This document shows, in pieces, positions 2,935-49,935 of a stretch of DNA of 64,000 nt. The stretch lies in NCBI RefSeq assembly GCF_024298765.1, contig NZ_CP101210.1; one strand, 5' to 3'. The translations under genes were made by a program, and so were the position numbers. Under the pieces are notes generated by a model. The model was not told the DNA's origin. It worked only from the letters and a program-made list of their open reading frames with translations, and did not search any database. The stretch's first letter is position 1, and every line of letters starts with the position of its first letter. The stretch comes from Escherichia coli. Its GTDB lineage: Bacteria > Pseudomonadota > Gammaproteobacteria > Enterobacterales > Enterobacteriaceae.

Positions 2935-3292
2935 GAGTCAGACAACGAAGTGAACATCAGGATGATGACACTTCTGAAGGACACACCAGGATGGTGTTTC
3001 AGGGAAAGGCTTCTGGATGAAGCGAAGAGGATGACGCAGGACGCGTTAAAGGACACCTCCAGGATGGAGAATGAGAACCGGTCAGGATGATTCGGTGGGT
3101 CAGGAAGGCCAGGAACACTTCAGGATGAAGTATCACATCGGGGTGGTGTGAGCAGGAAGCAATAGTTCAGGATGAACGATTGGCCGCAAGGCCAGAGGAA
3201 AAGTTGTCAAGGATGAGCAGGGAGCAACAAAAGTAGCCGGAATGCTGCGAAACGAACCGGGAGCACTGTGAATACAGTGCTCCCTTTTTTTA
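2935..3292 (+). ncRNA. csrB: CsrB small RNA (CsrA-sequestering)
   Basis: About 360 nt with at least nine CAGGAUG/AGGAUG motifs (2957, 2988, 3028, 3060, 3083, 3120, 3168, 3210 and others), ending in a GC-rich hairpin (3259-3284) plus a T7 run (3285-3291). Sits between syd and yqcC as in E. coli. Confidence 0.88.
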
Positions 3293-3336
3293 TTCCTGCT
3301 ATCCTTCGCGGCAGTTTTTCTTATTGAGGTTGCTTT

Positions 3337-35036: not shown

Positions 35037-36836
35037 ATGACGACACAGGTCCCACCTTCCGCGTTGCTTCCGTTGAACCCGGAGCAACTGGCACGCCTTC
35101 AGGCGGCCACGACCGATTTAACTCCTACCCAGCTTGCCTGGGTTTCTGGCTATTTCTGGGGCGTGCTCAACCAGCAGCCTGCTGCGCTTGCAGCGACGCC
35201 AGCGCCCGCCGCAGAAATGCCGGGTATAACTATTATCTCCGCTTCGCAAACCGGCAATGCGCGCCGGGTTGCTGAAGCATTACGCGATGATTTATTAGCG
35301 GCAAAACTGAACGTTAAGCTGGTGAACGCGGGCGACTATAAATTCAAACAAATCGCCAGCGAAAAACTGCTCATCGTGGTGACGTCAACGCAAGGGGAAG
35401 GGGAACCGCCGGAAGAAGCCGTCGCGCTGCATAAGTTCCTGTTCTCCAAAAAAGCGCCAAAGCTGGAAAACACTGCATTTGCCGTGTTTAGCCTCGGCGA
35501 TAGCTCTTATGAATTTTTCTGCCAGTCCGGGAAAGATTTTGACAGCAAGCTGGCGGAACTGGGCGGTGAACGCCTGCTCGACCGTGTCGATGCCGACGTT
35601 GAATACCAGGCTGCTGCCATCGAGTGGCGCGCCCGCGTGGTTGATGCGCTTAAATCGCGTGCGCCTGTCACGGCACCTTCGCAATCCGTCGCTACTGGCG
35701 CGGTAAATGAAATCCACACCAGCCCGTACAGCAAAGACGCGCCGCTGGTGGCGAGCCTTTCGGTTAACCAGAAAATTACCGGGCGTAACTCTGAAAAAGA
35801 CGTTCGCCATATCGAAATTGACTTAGGTGACTCTGGCCTGCGTTACCAGCCGGGTGACGCGCTGGGCGTCTGGTATCAGAACGATCCGGCACTGGTGAAA
35901 GAACTTGTCGAACTGCTGTGGCTGAAAGGCGATGAACCTGTCACCGTTGACGGCAAAACGCTGACCCTGAGCGAAGCGCTACAGTGGCACTTTGAACTGA
36001 CCGTCAACACCGCGAATATTGTTGAGAACTACGCCACGCTTACCCGCAGCGAAACGCTGCTGCCGCTGGTGGGCGATAAAGCGAAGTTACAGCATTACGC
36101 CGCGACCACGCCGATTGTTGACATGGTGCGTTTCTCTCCGGCGCAACTGGATGCCGAAGCGCTGATTAACCTGCTGCGCCCGCTGACCCCGCGCCTGTAT
36201 TCCATCGCCTCCTCGCAGGCGGAAGTCGAGAACGAAGTACACGTCACCGTTGGCGTGGTGCGTTACGACGTGGAAGGCCGCGCCCGTGCCGGTGGTGCCT
36301 CCAGCTTCCTTGCGGACCGCGTGGAAGAAGAGGGCGAAGTCCGCGTATTTATCGAACATAACGACAACTTCCGCCTGCCAGCCAACCCAGAAACCCCGGT
36401 GATTATGATTGGCCCAGGCACCGGCATCGCGCCGTTCCGCGCCTTTATGCAGCAACGCGCCGCCGACGAAGCGCCGGGGAAAAACTGGCTGTTCTTTGGC
36501 AACCCGCACTTTACGGAAGATTTCCTCTACCAGGTGGAATGGCAGCGCTACGTCAAAGAGGGCGTGCTGACGCGTATCGATCTTGCCTGGTCGCGCGATC
36601 AAAAAGAAAAAATTTACGTACAAGACAAACTGCGCGAACAGGGCGCGGAGCTGTGGCGCTGGATCAATGACGGTGCCCATATTTATGTCTGCGGCGACGC
36701 TAATCGCATGGCGAAAGACGTTGAGCAGGCACTTCTGGAAGTGATTGCCGAATTTGGTGGCATGGACACCGAAGCGGCGGATGAATTTTTAAGTGAGCTG
36801 CGCGTAGAGCGCCGTTATCAGCGAGATGTCTACTAA
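35037..36836 (+). CDS. cysJ: Sulfite reductase [NADPH] flavoprotein alpha component
   Basis: 599-aa ORF with flavodoxin and FAD/NADPH-reductase domains. Confidence 0.95.
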
Positions 36837-38548
36837 TGAGCGAAAAACATCCAGGGCCTTTAGTGGTCGAAGGAAAACTGACAGACGCCGAGCGCATGAA
36901 GCTTGAAAGCAACTACCTGCGCGGCACCATTGCGGAAGATTTAAACGACGGTCTGACCGGCGGCTTTAAGGGCGACAACTTCCTGCTGATCCGCTTCCAC
37001 GGCATGTATCAGCAGGATGACCGCGACATCCGCGCCGAACGTGCTGAACAGAAGCTGGAGCCGCGCCACGCGATGCTGTTGCGCTGCCGTCTGCCGGGTG
37101 GCGTGATCACCACCAAACAGTGGCAGGCGATAGACAAATTTGCCGGTGAAAACACCATCTATGGCAGCATTCGCCTGACCAACCGCCAGACGTTTCAGTT
37201 CCACGGCATTCTGAAAAAGAACGTCAAACCGGTGCACCAGATGCTGCACTCGGTCGGCCTTGATGCGCTGGCGACTGCTAACGACATGAACCGTAACGTA
37301 CTCTGCACCTCGAACCCTTACGAGTCGCAACTGCACGCGGAAGCATATGAATGGGCGAAGAAAATCTCTGAACATCTGCTGCCTCGTACCCGCGCGTATG
37401 CGGAGATCTGGCTCGATCAGGAAAAAGTCGCCACTACTGATGAAGAGCCGATCCTTGGTCAGACCTACCTGCCGCGTAAGTTCAAAACCACGGTAGTGAT
37501 CCCGCCGCAGAACGATATCGATCTGCACGCCAACGACATGAACTTCGTGGCAATCGCCGAAAACGGCAAGCTGGTGGGCTTTAACCTGCTGGTGGGCGGT
37601 GGGCTTTCCATCGAACATGGCAACAAGAAAACCTACGCCCGCACGGCGAGTGAGTTTGGCTATCTGCCGCTGGAGCATACGTTGGCAGTGGCGGAAGCCG
37701 TCGTGACAACTCAGCGTGACTGGGGTAACCGAACCGATCGTAAAAATGCCAAAACCAAATACACGCTGGAGCGCGTAGGGGTTGAGACGTTTAAAGCGGA
37801 AGTTGAACGTCGCGCGGGGATCAAATTCGAGCCGATTCGCCCGTATGAGTTTACCGGACGCGGCGATCGTATTGGCTGGGTTAAGGGCATTGATGATAAC
37901 TGGCACCTGACGCTGTTTATCGAAAATGGTCGCATTCTTGATTATCCGGGACGTCCGCTGAAAACCGGCTTGCTGGAGATCGCGAAGATCCACAAAGGTG
38001 ATTTCCGCATTACGGCGAACCAGAATCTGATCATCGCCGGCGTGCCGGAAAGCGAGAAAGCGAAGATCGAGAAGGTCGCCAAAGAAAGCGGGTTAATGAA
38101 TGCCGTCACGCCGCAGCGTGAAAACTCAATGGCCTGCGTGTCATTCCCGACTTGCCCGCTGGCGATGGCGGAAGCGGAGCGTTTCCTACCGTCTTTTATC
38201 GACAACATCGATAATTTAATGGCGAAACATGGTGTCAGCGATGAGCATATCGTGATGCGTGTAACAGGCTGCCCGAACGGTTGTGGTCGCGCGATGCTGG
38301 CGGAAGTGGGTCTGGTGGGGAAAGCGCCGGGTCGCTACAACCTGCATCTTGGCGGCAACCGCATTGGGACACGTATCCCACGGATGTATAAAGAAAACAT
38401 CACCGAGCCGGAAATCCTGGCGTCGCTTGATGAACTGATAGGGCGCTGGGCGAAAGAGCGCGAAGCGGGTGAAGGCTTCGGCGACTTTACGGTGCGTGCG
38501 GGCATCATTCGCCCGGTGCTCGATCCGGCGCGCGATTTGTGGGATTAA
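36836..38548 (+). CDS. cysI: Sulfite reductase [NADPH] hemoprotein beta component
   Basis: 570-aa ORF with siroheme/4Fe-4S cysteine motifs (CPNGCGRA); start overlaps the cysJ stop. Confidence 0.95.
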
Positions 38549-38564: not shown

Positions 38565-38600
38565 GTAGGCCTGATAAGACGCGTGAGCGTCGCATCAGGC
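38565..38600. repeat. REP element
   Basis: AGGCCTGATAAGACGCGTGAGCGTCGCATCAGGC palindrome between cysI and cysH. Confidence 0.7.
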
Positions 38601-38621
38601 AAGGCAAACAGTGAGGAATCT

Positions 38622-39356
38622 ATGTCCAAACTCGATCTAAACGCCCTGAACGAACTGCCGAAGGTAGATCGCATTCTGGCGCTGGCGGAAACTAACGCCG
38701 AACTGGAAAAACTGGACGCTGAAGGCCGCGTTGCCTGGGCGCTGGATAATCTGCCCGGTGAATATGTACTTTCTTCCAGCTTTGGCATTCAGGCGGCGGT
38801 GAGCCTGCATCTGGTGAATCAGATTCGCCCGGATATTCCGGTGATCCTCACCGATACCGGCTATCTGTTCCCAGAAACCTACCGCTTTATTGACGAGTTA
38901 ACGGACAAACTCAAGCTCAACCTGAAAGTGTACCGCGCTACCGAAAGCGCCGCCTGGCAGGAAGCGCGCTACGGTAAACTGTGGGAGCAGGGTGTTGAGG
39001 GGATTGAGAAGTACAACGAGATCAACAAAGTCGAACCGATGAACCGGGCGCTGAAAGAACTGAATGCGCAAACCTGGTTTGCTGGCCTGCGCCGTGAACA
39101 ATCCGGCAGCCGCGCCAATTTACCGGTGCTGGCAATTCAGCGTGGCGTATTTAAAGTGCTGCCGATTATCGACTGGGATAACCGAACTATTTATCAGTAC
39201 CTGCAAAAACATGGCCTGAAATATCACCCATTATGGGACGAAGGATATTTATCGGTCGGTGATACCCATACAACCCGTAAATGGGAACCCGGCATGGCGG
39301 AAGAAGAAACGCGTTTCTTTGGCTTAAAAAGAGAATGTGGGTTACACGAAGGGTAA
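38622..39356 (+). CDS. cysH: Phosphoadenosine phosphosulfate (PAPS) reductase
   Basis: Track ORF 38583-39356 trimmed to the ATG at 38622 ([10 protein letters not shown], 244 aa); the upstream extension lies inside the REP element. Confidence 0.9.
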
Positions 39357-39374: not shown

Positions 39375-39410
39375 AACGCCCCTGTCAGAAATGATGGGGC
39401 GTTTTTATTT
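39375..39410 (+). terminator. cysH Rho-independent terminator
   Basis: AAACGCCCC ... GGGGCGTTT hairpin followed by TTTATTTT. Confidence 0.75.
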
Positions 39411-39619
39411 TGCGAGCAGCATTCCGGCATTTAAAGGTGAACATCGCAGGGAGAATTAACAGGTATAGAATGGAGTTGGGTGCTTGAGGCTGTCTGGCGT
39501 TAAGCATTCGCGAGGTTCCAGATGGACAAAAGCCCCAGGCGATATTTCTATCAACCTGAGGCCAGCGTTCGAACCTAAGCAATTCGAATGTTAGTCTCTT
39601 CTTTGCAGGGAGGCAAGAC

Positions 39620-39772
39620 ATGCTGACAAAATATGCCCTTGTGGCAATCATCGTACTGTGTTGTACAGTACTGGGATTCACGCTGATGGTAGGCGACTCG
39701 TTGTGTGAGTTGAGTATCAGAGAACGTGGTATGGAGTTTAAGGCAGTTCTCGCTTACGAATCGAAGAAGTAG
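39620..39772 (+). CDS. Hok/Gef-family type I toxin (50 aa), hokX-like
   Basis: ATG at 39620 with SD GGGAGG 7 nt upstream. Translation [50 protein letters not shown]: one TM helix then SLCE...AYES, diagnostic of Hok/Gef. A GC hairpin follows (CGCGGGGG-TAAAA-CCCCGCG, 39778-39797). Below the ORF-track length cutoff. Confidence 0.62.
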
Positions 39773-39829
39773 CCACCACGCGGGGGTAAAACCCCGCGTA
39801 CTGAATTGTGATGGTTTGGTCTCCTGCAC

Positions 39830-40009
39830 CCTTTTTTAATTTATATTGTTTATGTGAATATTATGCCTATGTTTATTATTTATATATATTATGGATGAAA
39901 ATCATTTAATTATTCACAATGTAAATATTTTATTGAAAGATATATGTCACAGATAATTTTTAATATATGCGTGAATATCCTTTAAGTTTTACTGAAGGAT
40001 AAAAATATT
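39830..40009 (+). promoter_or_regulatory. AT-rich cas3 upstream region (probable H-NS-silenced promoter)
   Basis: Strongly AT-rich (TATATATAT, ATTTAATTATT) immediately upstream of cas3. Confidence 0.4.
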
Positions 40010-42667
40010 GTGACTTTCTTTTATTTCTGGGGAAAAACCCGACGCGGCGAGAAAGACGGGGGCGAAGACTATCACCTTCTTTGCTGGCATTCGCTGGATG
40101 TAGCCGCGATGGGCTATTTAATGGTTAAAAGCAATTGCTTCGGACTGGCTGGCTATTTTCGTCAATTAGGTTTCGCTGACACGGAGCTGGCAGCACAATT
40201 TTTCGCCTGGCTGCTGTGCTGGCACGATATTGGAAAATTTGCCCGCTCTTTTCAGCAACTTTACCTGCACCCACAACTCAAGGTTCCGGAAGGCGCAAGA
40301 AAGAATTACGAAAAGATCTCTCATTCAACGCTGGGCTACTGGTTGTGGAACCATTATTTAAGTGAATGTCAGGAGTTGCTTCCTTCATCTTCACTCTCTC
40401 CGCGCAAACTTAAACGGGTGATGGAGATGTGGATGCCCATGACTACCGGGCATCATGGTCGACCCCCTGAGCGTATGGATGAACTGGATAATTTTCTGCC
40501 TGAAGACAAAGGTGCCGCACGAGATTTTCTCCTTGCAATCAAGGTACTGTTTCCGCTCATAGAGATCCCCACATTCTGGGATGATGACGAGGGCGTTGAA
40601 CTTATAAAACAACTTTCCTGGTATATCTCTGCAACCGTCGTACTTGCAGACTGGACGGGATCGTCAACGCGATATTTTCCACGCGTTGCACAGGCAATGG
40701 ATATTGAAGATTACTGGCAGAAAACTTTAGTTCAGGCTCAAAACGCCTTAACCGTCTTTCCTCCAAAAGCAGAAAGCGCGCCTTTCACCGGAATTAATAC
40801 GCTGTTTCCTTTTATTGAGAATCCGACACCGCTACAGCAAAAGGTGCTGGATCTGGATATCAGCCAGCCGGGACCACAGTTATTTATTCTGGAGGATGTA
40901 ACCGGCGCAGGTAAAACAGAAGCGGCGCTTATCCTGGCGCACAGGTTGATGGCTGCGGGGAAAGCGCAGGGTTTGTTTTTTGGCCTGCCAACAATGGCAA
41001 CGGCCAATGCCATGTACGATCGACTGGTCAAAACCTGGCTTGCTTTCTATTCGCCAGAGTCCCGCCCCAGCCTGGTGCTGGCACACAGTGCCCGAACATT
41101 AATGGACCGCTTTAATGAATCACTCTGGTCCGGTGATTTAGTCGGGTCAGAAGAACCGGATGAACAAACGTTCAGTCAGGGATGTGCGGCCTGGTTTGCC
41201 GACAGTAACAAGAAGGCGCTACTGGCTGAAATTGGCGTCGGCACGCTGGATCAGGCGATGATGGCTGTGATGCCGTTCAAACATAATAATCTGCGGCTTC
41301 TGGGACTGAGTAACAAAATCCTGCTGGCTGATGAGATCCATGCCTGTGACGCTTACATGTCATGCATTCTTGAAGGGCTGATCGAGCGGCAGGCGCGTGG
41401 CGGAAACAGCGTCATTTTGCTTTCTGCCACGTTATCTCAACAGCAGCGCGACAAACTCGTCGCCGCCTTTGCGCGTGGTATAGAGGGCCAGCAAGAAGCT
41501 CCGTTGCTGGAAAAGGATGATTACCCCTGGCTGACGCACGTTACGAAATCCGATGTGCATTCACACCGGGTAGCGACGCGCAAAGACGTTGAGCGCAGCG
41601 TGAGTGTGGGTTGGCTTCATAGCGAACAAGAGTGTATTGCGCGTATCGAATCGGCGGTAAGTCAGGGGAAATGTATCGCCTGGATCCGAAATTCTGTCGA
41701 TGACGCCATCCAGGTTCATCGTCAGTTACTTGCCCGCGGCGTCATTCCTGCTTCCAGCCTTTCACTTTTTCATAGCCGCTTTGCTTTTAGCGATCGCCAG
41801 CGAATTGAAACGGAGACGCTGGCACGCTTTGGTAAAGAAGACTGTTCACAGCGTGCCGGAAAAGTCCTCATTTGTACTCAAGTCCTGGAGCAGAGCGTTG
41901 ACTGCGACCTGGACGAAATGATTTCCGACCTTGCCCCTGTTGATTTACTGATCCAGCGGGCGGGGCGATTACAGCGGCATATCCGCGATATTAATGGTCT
42001 GTTAAAGCGTGACGGAAAAGACGAGCGTTCCCCTCCTGAATTTCTGATTCTGGCTCCCGTCTGGGACGACTCTCCGGGTGACGAATGGTTTGGCAGCGCC
42101 ATGCGTAACAGTGCATATGTCTACCCCGATCATGGGCGAATCTGGCTGACGCAGCGTGTGCTGCGTGAGCAAGGCGCTATTCAGATGCCACACGCAGCCC
42201 GGCTTCTTATTGAATCAGTCTACGGTGAAGACGTGGCAATGCCGGAAGGATTTGCCCGCAGTGAGCAGGAGCAAGTGGGCAAATATTACTGCGATCGCGC
42301 AATGGCTAAAAAGTTTGTCCTGAACTTCAAGCCTGGCTATGCCGCCAATATCAACGATTACCTTCCGGAAAAGCTGTCGACACGTCTGGCTGAGGAATCT
42401 GTTTCCCTGTGGCTGGCTACCTGTATTGACGGTGTGGTGAAGCCTTATGCCACCGGTGCTCACGCATGGGAAATGAGCGTTGTCAGAGTGCGTCGAAGCT
42501 GGTGGAAAAAACATCGGGATGAGTTTTCTTTACTGGAAGGGGATGCGTTCAGGCAGTGGTGCATTGAACAGCGGCAAGATCCGGAGATGGCAAACGTGAT
42601 TTTAGTCACCGATGACGAAAGTTGCGGGTATTCGGCTATGGAAGGATTGACTGGCAAGGTTGGTTGA
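40010..42667 (+). CDS. cas3: Type I-E CRISPR-associated nuclease/helicase Cas3
   Basis: 885-aa ORF; HD nuclease motifs (HSLDVAA, CWHDIGKF), helicase Walker A (TGAGKTEA) and DExH box (LLADEIHACD). Confidence 0.92.
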   Translation: MTFFYFWGKTRRGEKDGGEDYHLLCWHSLDVAAMGYLMVKSNCFGLAGYFRQLGFADTELAAQFFAWLLCWHDIGKFARSFQQLYLHPQLKVPEGARKNYEKISHSTLGYWLWNHYLSECQELLPSSSLSPRKLKRVMEMWMPMTTGHHGRPPERMDELDNFLPEDKGAARDFLLAIKVLFPLIEIPTFWDDDEGVELIKQLSWYISATVVLADWTGSSTRYFPRVAQAMDIEDYWQKTLVQAQNALTVFPPKAESAPFTGINTLFPFIENPTPLQQKVLDLDISQPGPQLFILEDVTGAGKTEAALILAHRLMAAGKAQGLFFGLPTMATANAMYDRLVKTWLAFYSPESRPSLVLAHSARTLMDRFNESLWSGDLVGSEEPDEQTFSQGCAAWFADSNKKALLAEIGVGTLDQAMMAVMPFKHNNLRLLGLSNKILLADEIHACDAYMSCILEGLIERQARGGNSVILLSATLSQQQRDKLVAAFARGIEGQQEAPLLEKDDYPWLTHVTKSDVHSHRVATRKDVERSVSVGWLHSEQECIARIESAVSQGKCIAWIRNSVDDAIQVHRQLLARGVIPASSLSLFHSRFAFSDRQRIETETLARFGKEDCSQRAGKVLICTQVLEQSVDCDLDEMISDLAPVDLLIQRAGRLQRHIRDINGLLKRDGKDERSPPEFLILAPVWDDSPGDEWFGSAMRNSAYVYPDHGRIWLTQRVLREQGAIQMPHAARLLIESVYGEDVAMPEGFARSEQEQVGKYYCDRAMAKKFVLNFKPGYAANINDYLPEKLSTRLAEESVSLWLATCIDGVVKPYATGAHAWEMSVVRVRRSWWKKHRDEFSLLEGDAFRQWCIEQRQDPEMANVILVTDDESCGYSAMEGLTGKVG

Positions 42668-42764
42668 GATGCCTGCGACAGGGCTCTCTGAATAGTTGAT
42701 ACACAGAAAAAGATGGAAGGATGGACAACCGGCCAGGGATGGTCTTTTTTACGAGAGGATGCGT

Positions 42765-44327
42765 ATGAACTCGTTTTCACTTCTGACAACCCCGTGGTTG
42801 CCCGTTCGTTTTAAAGACGGAACAACAGGCAAACTGGCGCCAGTCCATCTGGCGGATGAAAATGTTGTCGATATAGCTGCGCCGCGGGCAGATCTCCAGG
42901 GGGCGGCATGGCAGTTTTTGCTGGGGCTACTACAAACCAGCTTCGCGCCAAAAGATCATCGTCGTTGGGATGATATCTGGGAAGACGGACTGGAAGCTGA
43001 AAAGCTACGGGAGGCATTGCTGCCATTAGAGCACGCTTTCCAGTTTGGGCCAGATTCCCCTTCATTTATGCAGGATTTTGAGGCGCTCACGGGAGATAAA
43101 GTTCCGGTCGCTTCGCTACTGCCTGAGATTCCCGGCGTTCAAACAACAAAGTTTAATAAAGACCACTTTATCAAGCGTGGTGTAACGGAACACCTGTGCC
43201 CACAGTGTTCTGCACTAGCCTTGTTCTCTCTACAGTTAAATGCGCCGTCAGGCGGCAAAGGCTATCGCACCGGCTTACGCGGCGGTGGGCCGATGACTAC
43301 TCTGATTGAATTACAGGAATATCAGGGCAATCAACAAACTCCCTTGTGGCGCAAAATGTGGCTCAACGTGATGCCGCAGGATGAAGCCGACTTACCGCTA
43401 CCCAAAAAATTTGACGGTCTGGTTTTCCCCTGGCTTGGCCCGACGCGCACCAGCGAACTGGCCGGTGCGGTGGTAACCGATGATCAGGTTAATAAACTCC
43501 AGGCGTACTGGGGAATGCCGCGGCGTATTCGTATTGATTTTAATACCACGACAGTCGGCAACTGCGATATTTGCGGCGAGCAGAACGACGCGCTCCTGAG
43601 CCTGATGACGACCAAAAATTACGGTGCGAATTATGCCATGTGGCAGCATCCTTTAACGCCTTACCGTATACCACTTAAAGAGGGTGGCGAGTTTTACTCG
43701 GTCAAACCACAACCGGGCGGTTTAATCTGGCGCGACTGGTTAGGCCTTATCGAAACGGGTAAGTCAGAAAACAATACGGAACTTCCTGCACTGGTGGTGA
43801 AACTCTTTAATGCCAGCAGTCTGAAACAGGCAAAAGTGGGCCTATGGGGATTTGGTTATGATTTTGACAACATGAAAGCGCGCTGTTGGTACGAACACCA
43901 TTTCCCGCTACTGCTCAATAAAAAAGAAGGCCAGATACCGAAGCTGCGGCTGGCTGCGCAAACGGCTTCACGGATTCTGAGTCTGTTACGGAGTGCATTG
44001 AAAGAAGCATGGTTCTCCGATCCAAAAGGTGTAAGGGGTGATTTCAGTTTTGTGGATATCGACTTCTGGAACAAAACTCAGCATCGCTTCCTGAGGTTAG
44101 TGCGCCAAATTGAAGAAGGTCAGGATGCGGATGAATTACTCGGCAAATGGCAAAAGGAAATTTGGTTATTCGCGCGTCAGGATTTTGACGAGCGTGTATT
44201 CACTAATCCTTATGAGCCCGTTGATTTGAAACGCGTCATGACCGCGCGCAAGAAATATTTTACAACATCGGCGGAGAAGCAAAGTGCTAAAGCCGCCAGG
44301 GAGAAAAAGCAGGAGGCTGCTGAATGA
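42765..44327 (+). CDS. casA: Cascade large subunit Cse1 (CasA)
   Basis: Track ORF 42696-44327 (TTG start) trimmed to the ATG at 42765 with SD GAGAGG; about 520 aa, second gene of the cas operon. Confidence 0.85.
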   Translation: MNSFSLLTTPWLPVRFKDGTTGKLAPVHLADENVVDIAAPRADLQGAAWQFLLGLLQTSFAPKDHRRWDDIWEDGLEAEKLREALLPLEHAFQFGPDSPSFMQDFEALTGDKVPVASLLPEIPGVQTTKFNKDHFIKRGVTEHLCPQCSALALFSLQLNAPSGGKGYRTGLRGGGPMTTLIELQEYQGNQQTPLWRKMWLNVMPQDEADLPLPKKFDGLVFPWLGPTRTSELAGAVVTDDQVNKLQAYWGMPRRIRIDFNTTTVGNCDICGEQNDALLSLMTTKNYGANYAMWQHPLTPYRIPLKEGGEFYSVKPQPGGLIWRDWLGLIETGKSENNTELPALVVKLFNASSLKQAKVGLWGFGYDFDNMKARCWYEHHFPLLLNKKEGQIPKLRLAAQTASRILSLLRSALKEAWFSDPKGVRGDFSFVDIDFWNKTQHRFLRLVRQIEEGQDADELLGKWQKEIWLFARQDFDERVFTNPYEPVDLKRVMTARKKYFTTSAEKQSAKAAREKKQEAAE

Positions 44328-48625: not shown

Positions 48626-49935
48626 GTGTTCCCCGCGCCAGCGGGGATAAACCGCATTGAAAACATTGCCTTTATTTTATTTTTTGGTGTTCCCCGCGCC
48701 AGCGGGGATAAACCGGTGCCGCCGCTGGGCACTTCCTTCCCGTGAGTGTGTTCCCCGCGCCAGCGGGGATAAACCGCCCTGATAGCGTCCAGTTGAATGC
48801 GCGCCCGCGTGTTCCCCGCGCCAGCGGGGATAAACCGGCAGGCACGGGCAATATCAGACTCGGTCAAAGGTGTTCCCCGCGCCAGCGGGGATAAACCGCT
48901 CGGTTGTTTTCATATTACCGGCCTGCCACTGTGTTCCCCGCGCCAGCGGGGATAAACCGACAATATCCCGGACCGGGCGCTGATTTAGTCAGTGTTCCCC
49001 GCGCCAGCGGGGATAAACCGCGGACGGTGGGAATATAGAAAATCCGTCCACCGTGTTCCCCGCGCCAGCGGGGATAAACCGTTATACTCTTTTCATCGAC
49101 TAAGGAGGGGAGGGTGTTCCCCGCGCCAGCGGGGATAAACCGCAATAACGCAGCATCCAGGAAGCTGTTTCCGCGTGTTCCCCGCGCCAGCGGGGATAAA
49201 CCGCGATCGGTGAAGAGGTCCGCGAAATACTCACTGTGTTCCCCGCGCCAGCGGGGATAAACCGGCGATAGTTGATTCAGCCGCGCCAGCGAATGTGTGT
49301 TCCCCGCGCCAGCGGGGATAAACCGGGGCCGCCGCGAATTTACACACGATTCAATACGTGTTCCCCGCGCCAGCGGGGATAAACCGAACTGGTGCGCGAC
49401 GGCTGGCTAACAAAACGAGTGTTCCCCGCGCCAGCGGGGATAAACCGCGTGGCTGCGCTGGCCGTTGCAGCAGTTTGATGTGTTCCCCGCGCCAGCGGGG
49501 ATAAACCGCGTAAACGCCCCGTCGCCATTAATTTCGGGGTGTGTTCCCCGCGCCAGCGGGGATAAACCGTGGGATGAGCAAATAACGTCGTTTCCTAGAA
49601 AGTGTTCCCCGCGCCAGCGGGGATAAACCGCCGCCGTGCCAGTGATCCTCATACGGCCTGTTGTGTTCCCCGCGCCAGCGGGGATAAACCGAAATTAAGA
49701 ACGGCGTAAACGACGGCAGCATGGTGTTCCCCGCGCCAGCGGGGATAAACCGGTGATGATTCAGAGCAGACATTAGCCCGCGCTGTGTTCCCCGCGCCAG
49801 CGGGGATAAACCGGGTAAAAACACGGTCTGAACCGACATTCATGTGTGTTCCCCGCGTCAGCGGGGATAAACCGGACGCACTGGATGCGATGATGGATAT
49901 CACTTAGAATTCCCCGCCCCTGCGGTAGAACTCCC
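48626..49935 (+). CRISPR. Type I-E CRISPR array, 22 repeats (21 intact and a degenerate terminal repeat) and 21 spacers of 32 nt (cas-proximal array)
   Basis: 29-nt repeat GTGTTCCCCGCGCCAGCGGGGATAAACCG at strict 61-nt period from 48626 to 49846. The repeat at 49846 has a CGTCA variant; the terminal repeat at 49907-49935 is GAATTCCCCGCCCCTGCGGTAGAACTCCC. Confidence 0.97.

Follow-up and report, generated by a model that had tools for sequence, protein, structure and literature searches.

A probable hokX/sokX type I toxin-antitoxin locus between cysH and cas3 on an Escherichia coli chromosome

Introduction

Does the short open reading frame (ORF) between cysH and cas3 on an E. coli chromosome encode a true Hok/Gef toxin with an antisense partner, and is such a gene peculiar to one strain or bound up with the CRISPR-Cas genes that follow it? 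The question was raised by an original prediction made on a stretch of 64,000 nucleotides (the window), which described an intact Hok/Gef-family ORF hidden in this intergenic region. The evidence presented below points to the uninterrupted form of the chromosomal E. coli hokX/sokX type I toxin-antitoxin locus, a reading to which a probability of roughly 0.9 is attached.

The gene order of the region runs from cysI (36836-38548) and cysH (ending at 39356) through the cysH terminator hairpin (39380-39399), the sole terminator returned by a promoter and terminator scan, to hokX, a spacer and cas3, beyond which lie the other type I-E cas genes, a CRISPR array (48744-49511), iap, and cysD. Aside from these, a palindromic REP-like element is found at 38569-38601 between cysI and cysH, where the Rfam model naRNA4 scores 33.6 bits, below its gathering threshold of 59.5. 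The small RNA CsrB is encoded at 2935-3294 on the plus strand (RF00018, 381.7 bits), as expected for this chromosome region.

The Toxin Gene

The hokX toxin ORF (39620-39772, plus strand) was identified from the ORF list, Pfam, RefSeq, and ortholog comparison. Reading of the sequence gives an ATG at 39620, 50 codons and a TAG stop at 39770-39772, with the Shine-Dalgarno (SD) sequence GGGAGG at 39608-39613 (plus strand), 6 nt 5′ of the ATG. The encoded peptide of 50 residues has one transmembrane segment, residues 6-24 being its sole strongly hydrophobic stretch with a mean Kyte-Doolittle value of 2.76. The ORF had been described in advance as 50 codons long, with a good SD and a single transmembrane segment, and all of these are in place. 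A gene of this class is always missed when ORFs are listed with a 60-residue cut-off.

Family membership, which the original prediction had also asserted, was borne out when the peptide was compared with Pfam PF01848 (Hok/Gef): residues 5-46 match the full model (positions 1-42 of 42) with an E value of 6.3e-10 and 38.9 bits. The layout of the peptide fits that of Hok/Gef toxins, which are about 50 residues long, with a single transmembrane helix near the N terminus and a conserved cysteine in the polar C-terminal portion, and in an alignment with HokE and HokC, to which it is 78% and 39% identical in K-12, its L-C-E and A-Y-E motifs are invariant. Two narrower NCBIfam models gave scores below their curated cut-offs, namely NF007279 (type I toxin-antitoxin system Hok family toxin; 39.5 bits against 73) and NF007290 (HokA equivalog; 53 bits against 89), so the peptide is not HokA and falls outside both models; its place in the Hok/Gef family is assigned because of the Pfam match and the 78% identity to HokE. 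The same peptide is RefSeq WP_000956458.1, named "Hok/Gef family protein", which is annotated in strains 104, TUM2330, O157:H7, 13C1079T, O104:H4, and O2:K2:H1. In a plasmid collection its Hok relatives are distant, at about 40-43% identity, and the few near-identical matches include one record of 4.9 Mb, evidently a chromosome.

The hokX peptide is under purifying selection. Among nine orthologous loci, taken from strains with up to 8% divergence in the flanks, the ORF is polymorphic at 10 sites, nine of them synonymous and the remaining one corresponding to C15F.

Anatomy and Folding of the hok mRNA

A putative hok promoter is marked by the -10 box TAGAAT (39466-39471, plus strand), the alignment columns of which hold TATAAT in K-12 hokC and TAAGAT in K-12 hokE, while the -35 element reads as weak (ATCGCA). 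Transcription would start at 39478, 7 nt 3′ of the -10 box, and the full-length hokX mRNA, with leader, toxin ORF and 3′ UTR, would occupy 39478-39838 on the plus strand, an extent based on Rfam, the predicted fold and the end of homology. Rfam RF01794 matches 39478-39635 (plus strand) along its entire length (1-157 of 157) with 111.7 bits, the gathering score being 59, and homology to strains lacking cas genes stops at 39838/39839. The consensus promoter and terminator scan found neither the hok nor the sokX promoter, and therefore both are putative assignments, read by eye and from the hokC and hokE alignment. Nor did the scan find a canonical intrinsic terminator after the hok mRNA, where there is just a T6 run following fbi.

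The 361-nt RNA folds with a minimum free energy (MFE) of -127.8 kcal/mol, corresponding to a z score of -2.98 relative to shuffled sequences, and the closing tac-fbi helix looked for in a hok mRNA is present in the MFE fold. The tac element GGGTGCTTGAGGCT (39478-39491, plus strand) at the mRNA 5′ end is predicted to pair with the fbi element GGTCTCCTGCACCC (39818-39831, plus strand), which is followed by T6 at 39832-39837; the predicted pairs join 39478-39483 to 39826-39831 and 39486-39491 to 39818-39823. tac is invariant in the nine orthologs and conserved in hokE and hokC, and the pairing is kept, since two natural fbi variants change G-C to G-U or G-U to G-C. In the closed full-length fold, the ucb-like box GCCCCAGG (39532-39539, plus strand), labeled after the R1 model summarized in PMC9841398, pairs with CCTGAGGC at 39555-39562 and thereby sequesters GAGG at 39558-39561. 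The toxin ORF is in this way preceded by a leader of the hok family and enclosed by predicted complementary RNA 5′ and 3′ ends.

In silico removal of the 3′ 33-38 nt switches the predicted fold to a 5′ hairpin and a Sok-target hairpin at 39558-39598 (plus strand). The latter includes the GAGG used as mok SD by hokC and R1; it is also obtained from local folding and from the Rfam consensus structure, and two of its stem pairs covary between hokX and hokE (U-A to C-G and G-C to A-U). The R1-type open form with tac paired to ucb is absent from the MFE fold of the 3′-trimmed RNA, in which tac pairs with 39496-39509; by eye, GGGTGCTT can pair with AAGCCCC at 39529-39535, given one bulged U. The leader from 39478 to 39562 is invariant in the nine orthologs.

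A separate observation concerns the leader variants, which cluster at 39563-39587 (about eight positions among the nine orthologs), the part of the leader to which the single-stranded 5′ tail of SokX pairs, and follow 85 nt that are invariant; K-12 sokX differs from the window at two positions within 39563-39587. This variation may represent allelic variation in Sok-hok recognition.

The 3′ GC-Rich Hairpin and IS Insertions

The GC-rich hairpin that had been noted after the ORF is indeed present at 39778-39799 (plus strand), where folding gives a stem-loop ACGCGGGG/GTAAAA/CCCCGCGT that begins 6 nt after the stop codon. By analogy with relatives, it would form the 3′ terminus of the processed mRNA. 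The hairpin is also a recurrent site of IS186/IS421 insertion in either orientation, with the break after 39794, as seen in O104:H4 and NT1F25. About 800 of the 5426 complete E. coli genomes are interrupted at this position, with IS186/IS421 in the hairpin where inspected, and both K-12 hokC and K-12 hokE carry IS186 at the equivalent position. As a repeated IS186 target, the hairpin after hok drives rearrangements of the CRISPR-Cas region.

The SokX Antisense RNA

An antisense sokX gene lies opposite the leader and is nearly identical to the annotated K-12 copy. It would specify an antisense RNA antitoxin of 59 nt (39522-39580, minus strand, 5′ end at 39580) that matches K-12 sokX b4701 at 57 of 59 positions, and when sokX and K-12 sokE are aligned, their annotated 5′ ends coincide. 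SokX is predicted to fold into a single-stranded 5′ tail and an imperfect stem-loop followed by a CUUUUGU tail. Its putative promoter (39588-39616, minus strand), read by eye, consists of a -35 element TTGCCT at 39616-39611, a 17-nt spacer and a -10 element TAACAT at 39593-39588; it fits 8 of 12 consensus positions, with the scan threshold set at 9, is identical in K-12, and has a -35 element overlapping the hok SD region. The -10 element is the reverse complement of ATGTTA, which includes the ATG at 39588.

The naming of this RNA in databases calls for some care. RF01794 is called "sok antitoxin", and its match here is on the plus strand, that of the hok mRNA, and ends at an ATG, with the annotated SokX on the opposite strand. 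An Rfam "sok" annotation can therefore carry the wrong strand and the wrong length (157 vs. 59 nt). In O157:H7 EDL933, reads have been recorded on the Rfam interval "sok_15/sokX" (PMC5331693).

Two minus-strand ORFs overlap hokX, at 39385-39681 (98 residues) and 39575-39829 (84 residues), and had been taken as probably marking the Sok side of the locus. Their existence stands, and their value as a marker does not: Sok is non-coding and lies at 39522-39580 (minus strand), over the leader upstream of the toxin ORF. A scan with NCBIfam gave no meaningful family match for either the 98- or the 84-codon frame, and both are chance ORFs.

A Candidate Minimal mok

A canonical mok start is absent from hokX, there being no ATG, GTG, TTG, CTG, or ATN codon within 5-13 nt after the GAGG at 39558-39561, and a search with the same set of codons found no in-frame start upstream of hok. 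The sole upstream ATG (39588) is not preceded by a clear SD and lies in a paired part of the target hairpin; it opens a 12-codon ORF (39588-39626, plus strand) that crosses the hok SD and ends in a TGA overlapping the hok start (ATGCTGA). The peptide of this upstream ORF is identical in the nine orthologs; in O157:H7 its stop is TAA rather than TGA, a change that is synonymous in hok.

For R1 mok, it is enough that translation reaches the hok SD and start codon (PMC9841398). Ribosomes starting at the upstream ATG would cross the hok SD in both hokX and hokE, and the 12-codon ORF is by this analogy a plausible minimal mok. On this alternative reading, canonical mok in the hokE/hokX branch would have been replaced by a minimal upstream ORF ending on the hok start codon. 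The name mokX is absent from the literature searched, in which mokX/mokE matches were confined to Monascus polyketide genes.

Distribution among E. coli Genomes

The locus is already named, annotated and published, and it is an ordinary one, found in about four of every five E. coli strains. The original prediction spoke of a hidden gene that might be specific to this strain, and both descriptions fail: RefSeq annotates it in every genome inspected, and the hok CDS, counted when at least 80% covered, is found in 4218 of 5426 complete E. coli genomes, with one chromosomal copy in each. The 651 bases of the region are 100% identical to those of strain 104 (NZ_CP029164.1). In 3416 of the 5426 genomes the 3′ part (39730-39838) is contiguous, so that hok continues uninterrupted through fbi.

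The statement in the original prediction that K-12 keeps only a sokX remnant here proved correct. Homology to MG1655 spans the leader and ends right after the hok ATG, at 39622 of the window, and K-12 annotates sokX b4701 there on the strand opposite to cysH. This state, being that of a minority, is represented by a junction of leader, hok ATG and K-12-variant cas3, which was found in 1172 of the 5426 genomes at a coverage of at least 80% and in 1184 when any match was counted. Together, the hok-positive and K-12-type classes make up nearly all 5426 genomes, and the genomes with no hok CDS, roughly 1180, are those with K-12-type cas3. It is K-12 that is atypical, because it keeps an orphan antitoxin.

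A hok sok system in the cysH-cas3 region was described by Almendros et al. (2014, mBio; PMC3903273), who found it in all strains except carriers of the cas-E2 (K-12) variant and reported IS186 insertion at GC-rich sites in the cysH-cas3 region. In uropathogenic strains, hok and sokX have been reported next to cysH in 90%, the rest having sokX alone as in K-12 (PMC12736100). The gene, first seen in E. coli B, is called hokX in PMC7232551, and hokX and sokX are among the toxin-antitoxin genes analyzed in a study using the TAfinder/TADB tool (PMC11598369). The genome counts given here only repeat the published distribution on more genomes. As the distribution relative to the two cas-E variants had been described before, the significance of the present finding is small beyond correct annotation.

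The Neighboring cas Genes

The ORF had also been placed directly upstream of an H-NS-silenced cas3 promoter. That silencing is a K-12 result, and the hok-cas3 sequence of K-12 is not homologous to that of the window, which has the other cas-E variant, so the remark referred to no mapped cas3 promoter. The spacer of the window at 39840-40000 has a GC content of only 17-26%.

Two observations were made on the cas genes themselves. At the 5′ end of cas3 (39967-40012), the run at 39987-39990 is longer by one T than in TUM2330. This breaks the long cas3 frame from the ATG at 39967, and RefSeq for this reason labels the cas3 of the identical strain 104 as frameshifted. From a GTG at 40010, with AAGGA 10 nt upstream, a frame of 885 residues is uninterrupted, and Cas3 may be intact if this GTG is the real start. 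The casA gene is a RefSeq pseudogene with an internal stop in strain 104, and its frame is open in the window (42696-44327).

Alternative Explanations

That the toxin ORF is a chance frame and the antisense ORFs the real genes can practically be dismissed. Both antisense ORFs, at 98 and 84 codons, outsize the hok ORF, but they have no family match and are hit by single 1-nt deletions in O157:H7 and in O2:K2:H1. The larger one covers the hok promoter region and leader and extends into the cysH terminator hairpin at 39380-39399, and the family and selection evidence for the hok ORF is strong. A functional tie between the hokX transcript or its antisense partner and CRISPR-Cas I-E, through read-through into cas3 or by acting as an addiction element, has a slim chance of being right. 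It is true that hok lies on the same strand as cas3 and ends 129 nt before the annotated ATG at 39967; the intervening AT-rich spacer showed no canonical terminator in the scan; and hok forms the left edge of all cas-locus rearrangements. In one form of such a tie, hokX would have no terminator of its own, its transcript would read into the spacer and cas3 of the cas-E1 variant, and the state of the hok mRNA or of SokX, or addiction, would influence CRISPR-Cas expression or retention, all of which we regard as highly improbable. Strains with no cas-E genes (cysH-hok-iap) retain a hok encoding an identical peptide, however, whereas K-12-type cas strains have no hok, and therefore no dependence is evident from the distribution. 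The end of homology at 39838 moreover sets the hok module apart from the cas-linked spacer.

A more serious competitor, and still an unlikely one, is that the locus is hokX by descent but a silent relic, which never makes its toxin because it has lost the canonical mok start and has a weak promoter; on this view it is conserved owing to overlapping RNA and promoter signals or to recent common ancestry. The canonical mok position indeed has no start codon, the upstream ATG at 39588 is paired and has no SD, and the hok -35 element is weak. Furthermore, the ORF has been lost from about 1180 genomes, an IS in the 3′ UTR is tolerated by about 800, and PMC7232551, citing Pedersen and Gerdes (1999), reports all five K-12 hok loci to be inactivated. 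RNA constraints alone, however, would not yield nine synonymous changes out of ten in an ORF whose flanks differ by up to 8%. All RNA elements of the hok family are in place, the upstream ORF is conserved with its stop retained as TGA or TAA, and, despite its shift of frame from hokE, ribosomes translating it could still pass over the hok SD.

Proposed Mechanism

The literature searched yielded no experiments on hokX itself. The toxicity of HokX, its control by SokX, the processing of the 3′ end and the part played by the upstream ORF are here carried over by analogy from R1 and its relatives, and the mechanism is drawn by homology with hok/sok of plasmid R1, following the model summarized in PMC9841398. 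Briefly, transcription from a weak promoter would yield a full-length mRNA that extends from 39478 to about 39838 and is stable. Pairing of its tac and fbi ends would lock it shut, so that neither translation nor Sok binding could occur. Slow shortening from the 3′ end as far as the GC hairpin (39778-39799) would remove fbi, and the RNA would refold so that the target hairpin (39558-39598) becomes exposed. There SokX, produced from a presumably stronger antisense promoter, would pair, leading to a block of translation and cleavage by RNase III. Once SokX is exhausted, ribosomes would read the upstream ORF (39588-39626) across the hok SD before initiating Hok, which would enter the inner membrane and collapse the membrane potential.

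Hok loci on chromosomes are not known to have a defined physiological role.

Comparison with Known hok Systems

The window copy agrees with hokX/sokX of E. coli in locus, position and peptide, the last being identical to copies annotated across E. coli lineages. Nothing of substance differs, and the window copy is uninterrupted; the copy in E. coli B has been reported as IS-disrupted (PMC7232551). The closest paralog is hokE/sokE of K-12, with toxins that are 78% identical, a leader that aligns throughout and an upstream ATG in the same place. In hokE, this ATG is in frame with the toxin and adds an N-terminal extension of 12 residues, whereas the hokX spacer is 4 nt shorter, which is why hokX has a separate 12-codon ORF stopping on the hok start. 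K-12 hokE resembles hokX in lacking a start codon where mok would canonically begin, but it carries IS186 in its 3′ hairpin, which the hokX of the window does not.

Broader likeness extends to hok/mok/sok of R1 and to hokC(gef)/mokC/sokC, which belong to the same toxin family as hokX. The plan of the mRNA is likewise shared: tac pairs with fbi, there is a ucb box, GAGG lies within the target hairpin, the antisense promoter overlaps the hok SD region, and the stop codon is followed by a GC hairpin. In hokC, mokC is a long ORF starting 8 nt after GAGG, a position at which hokX has no start codon. R1 carries a terminator hairpin after fbi, whereas hokX has just T6 there. The predicted refolding of the hokX RNA after removal of its 3′ end matches the one described for R1 hok (PMC9841398).
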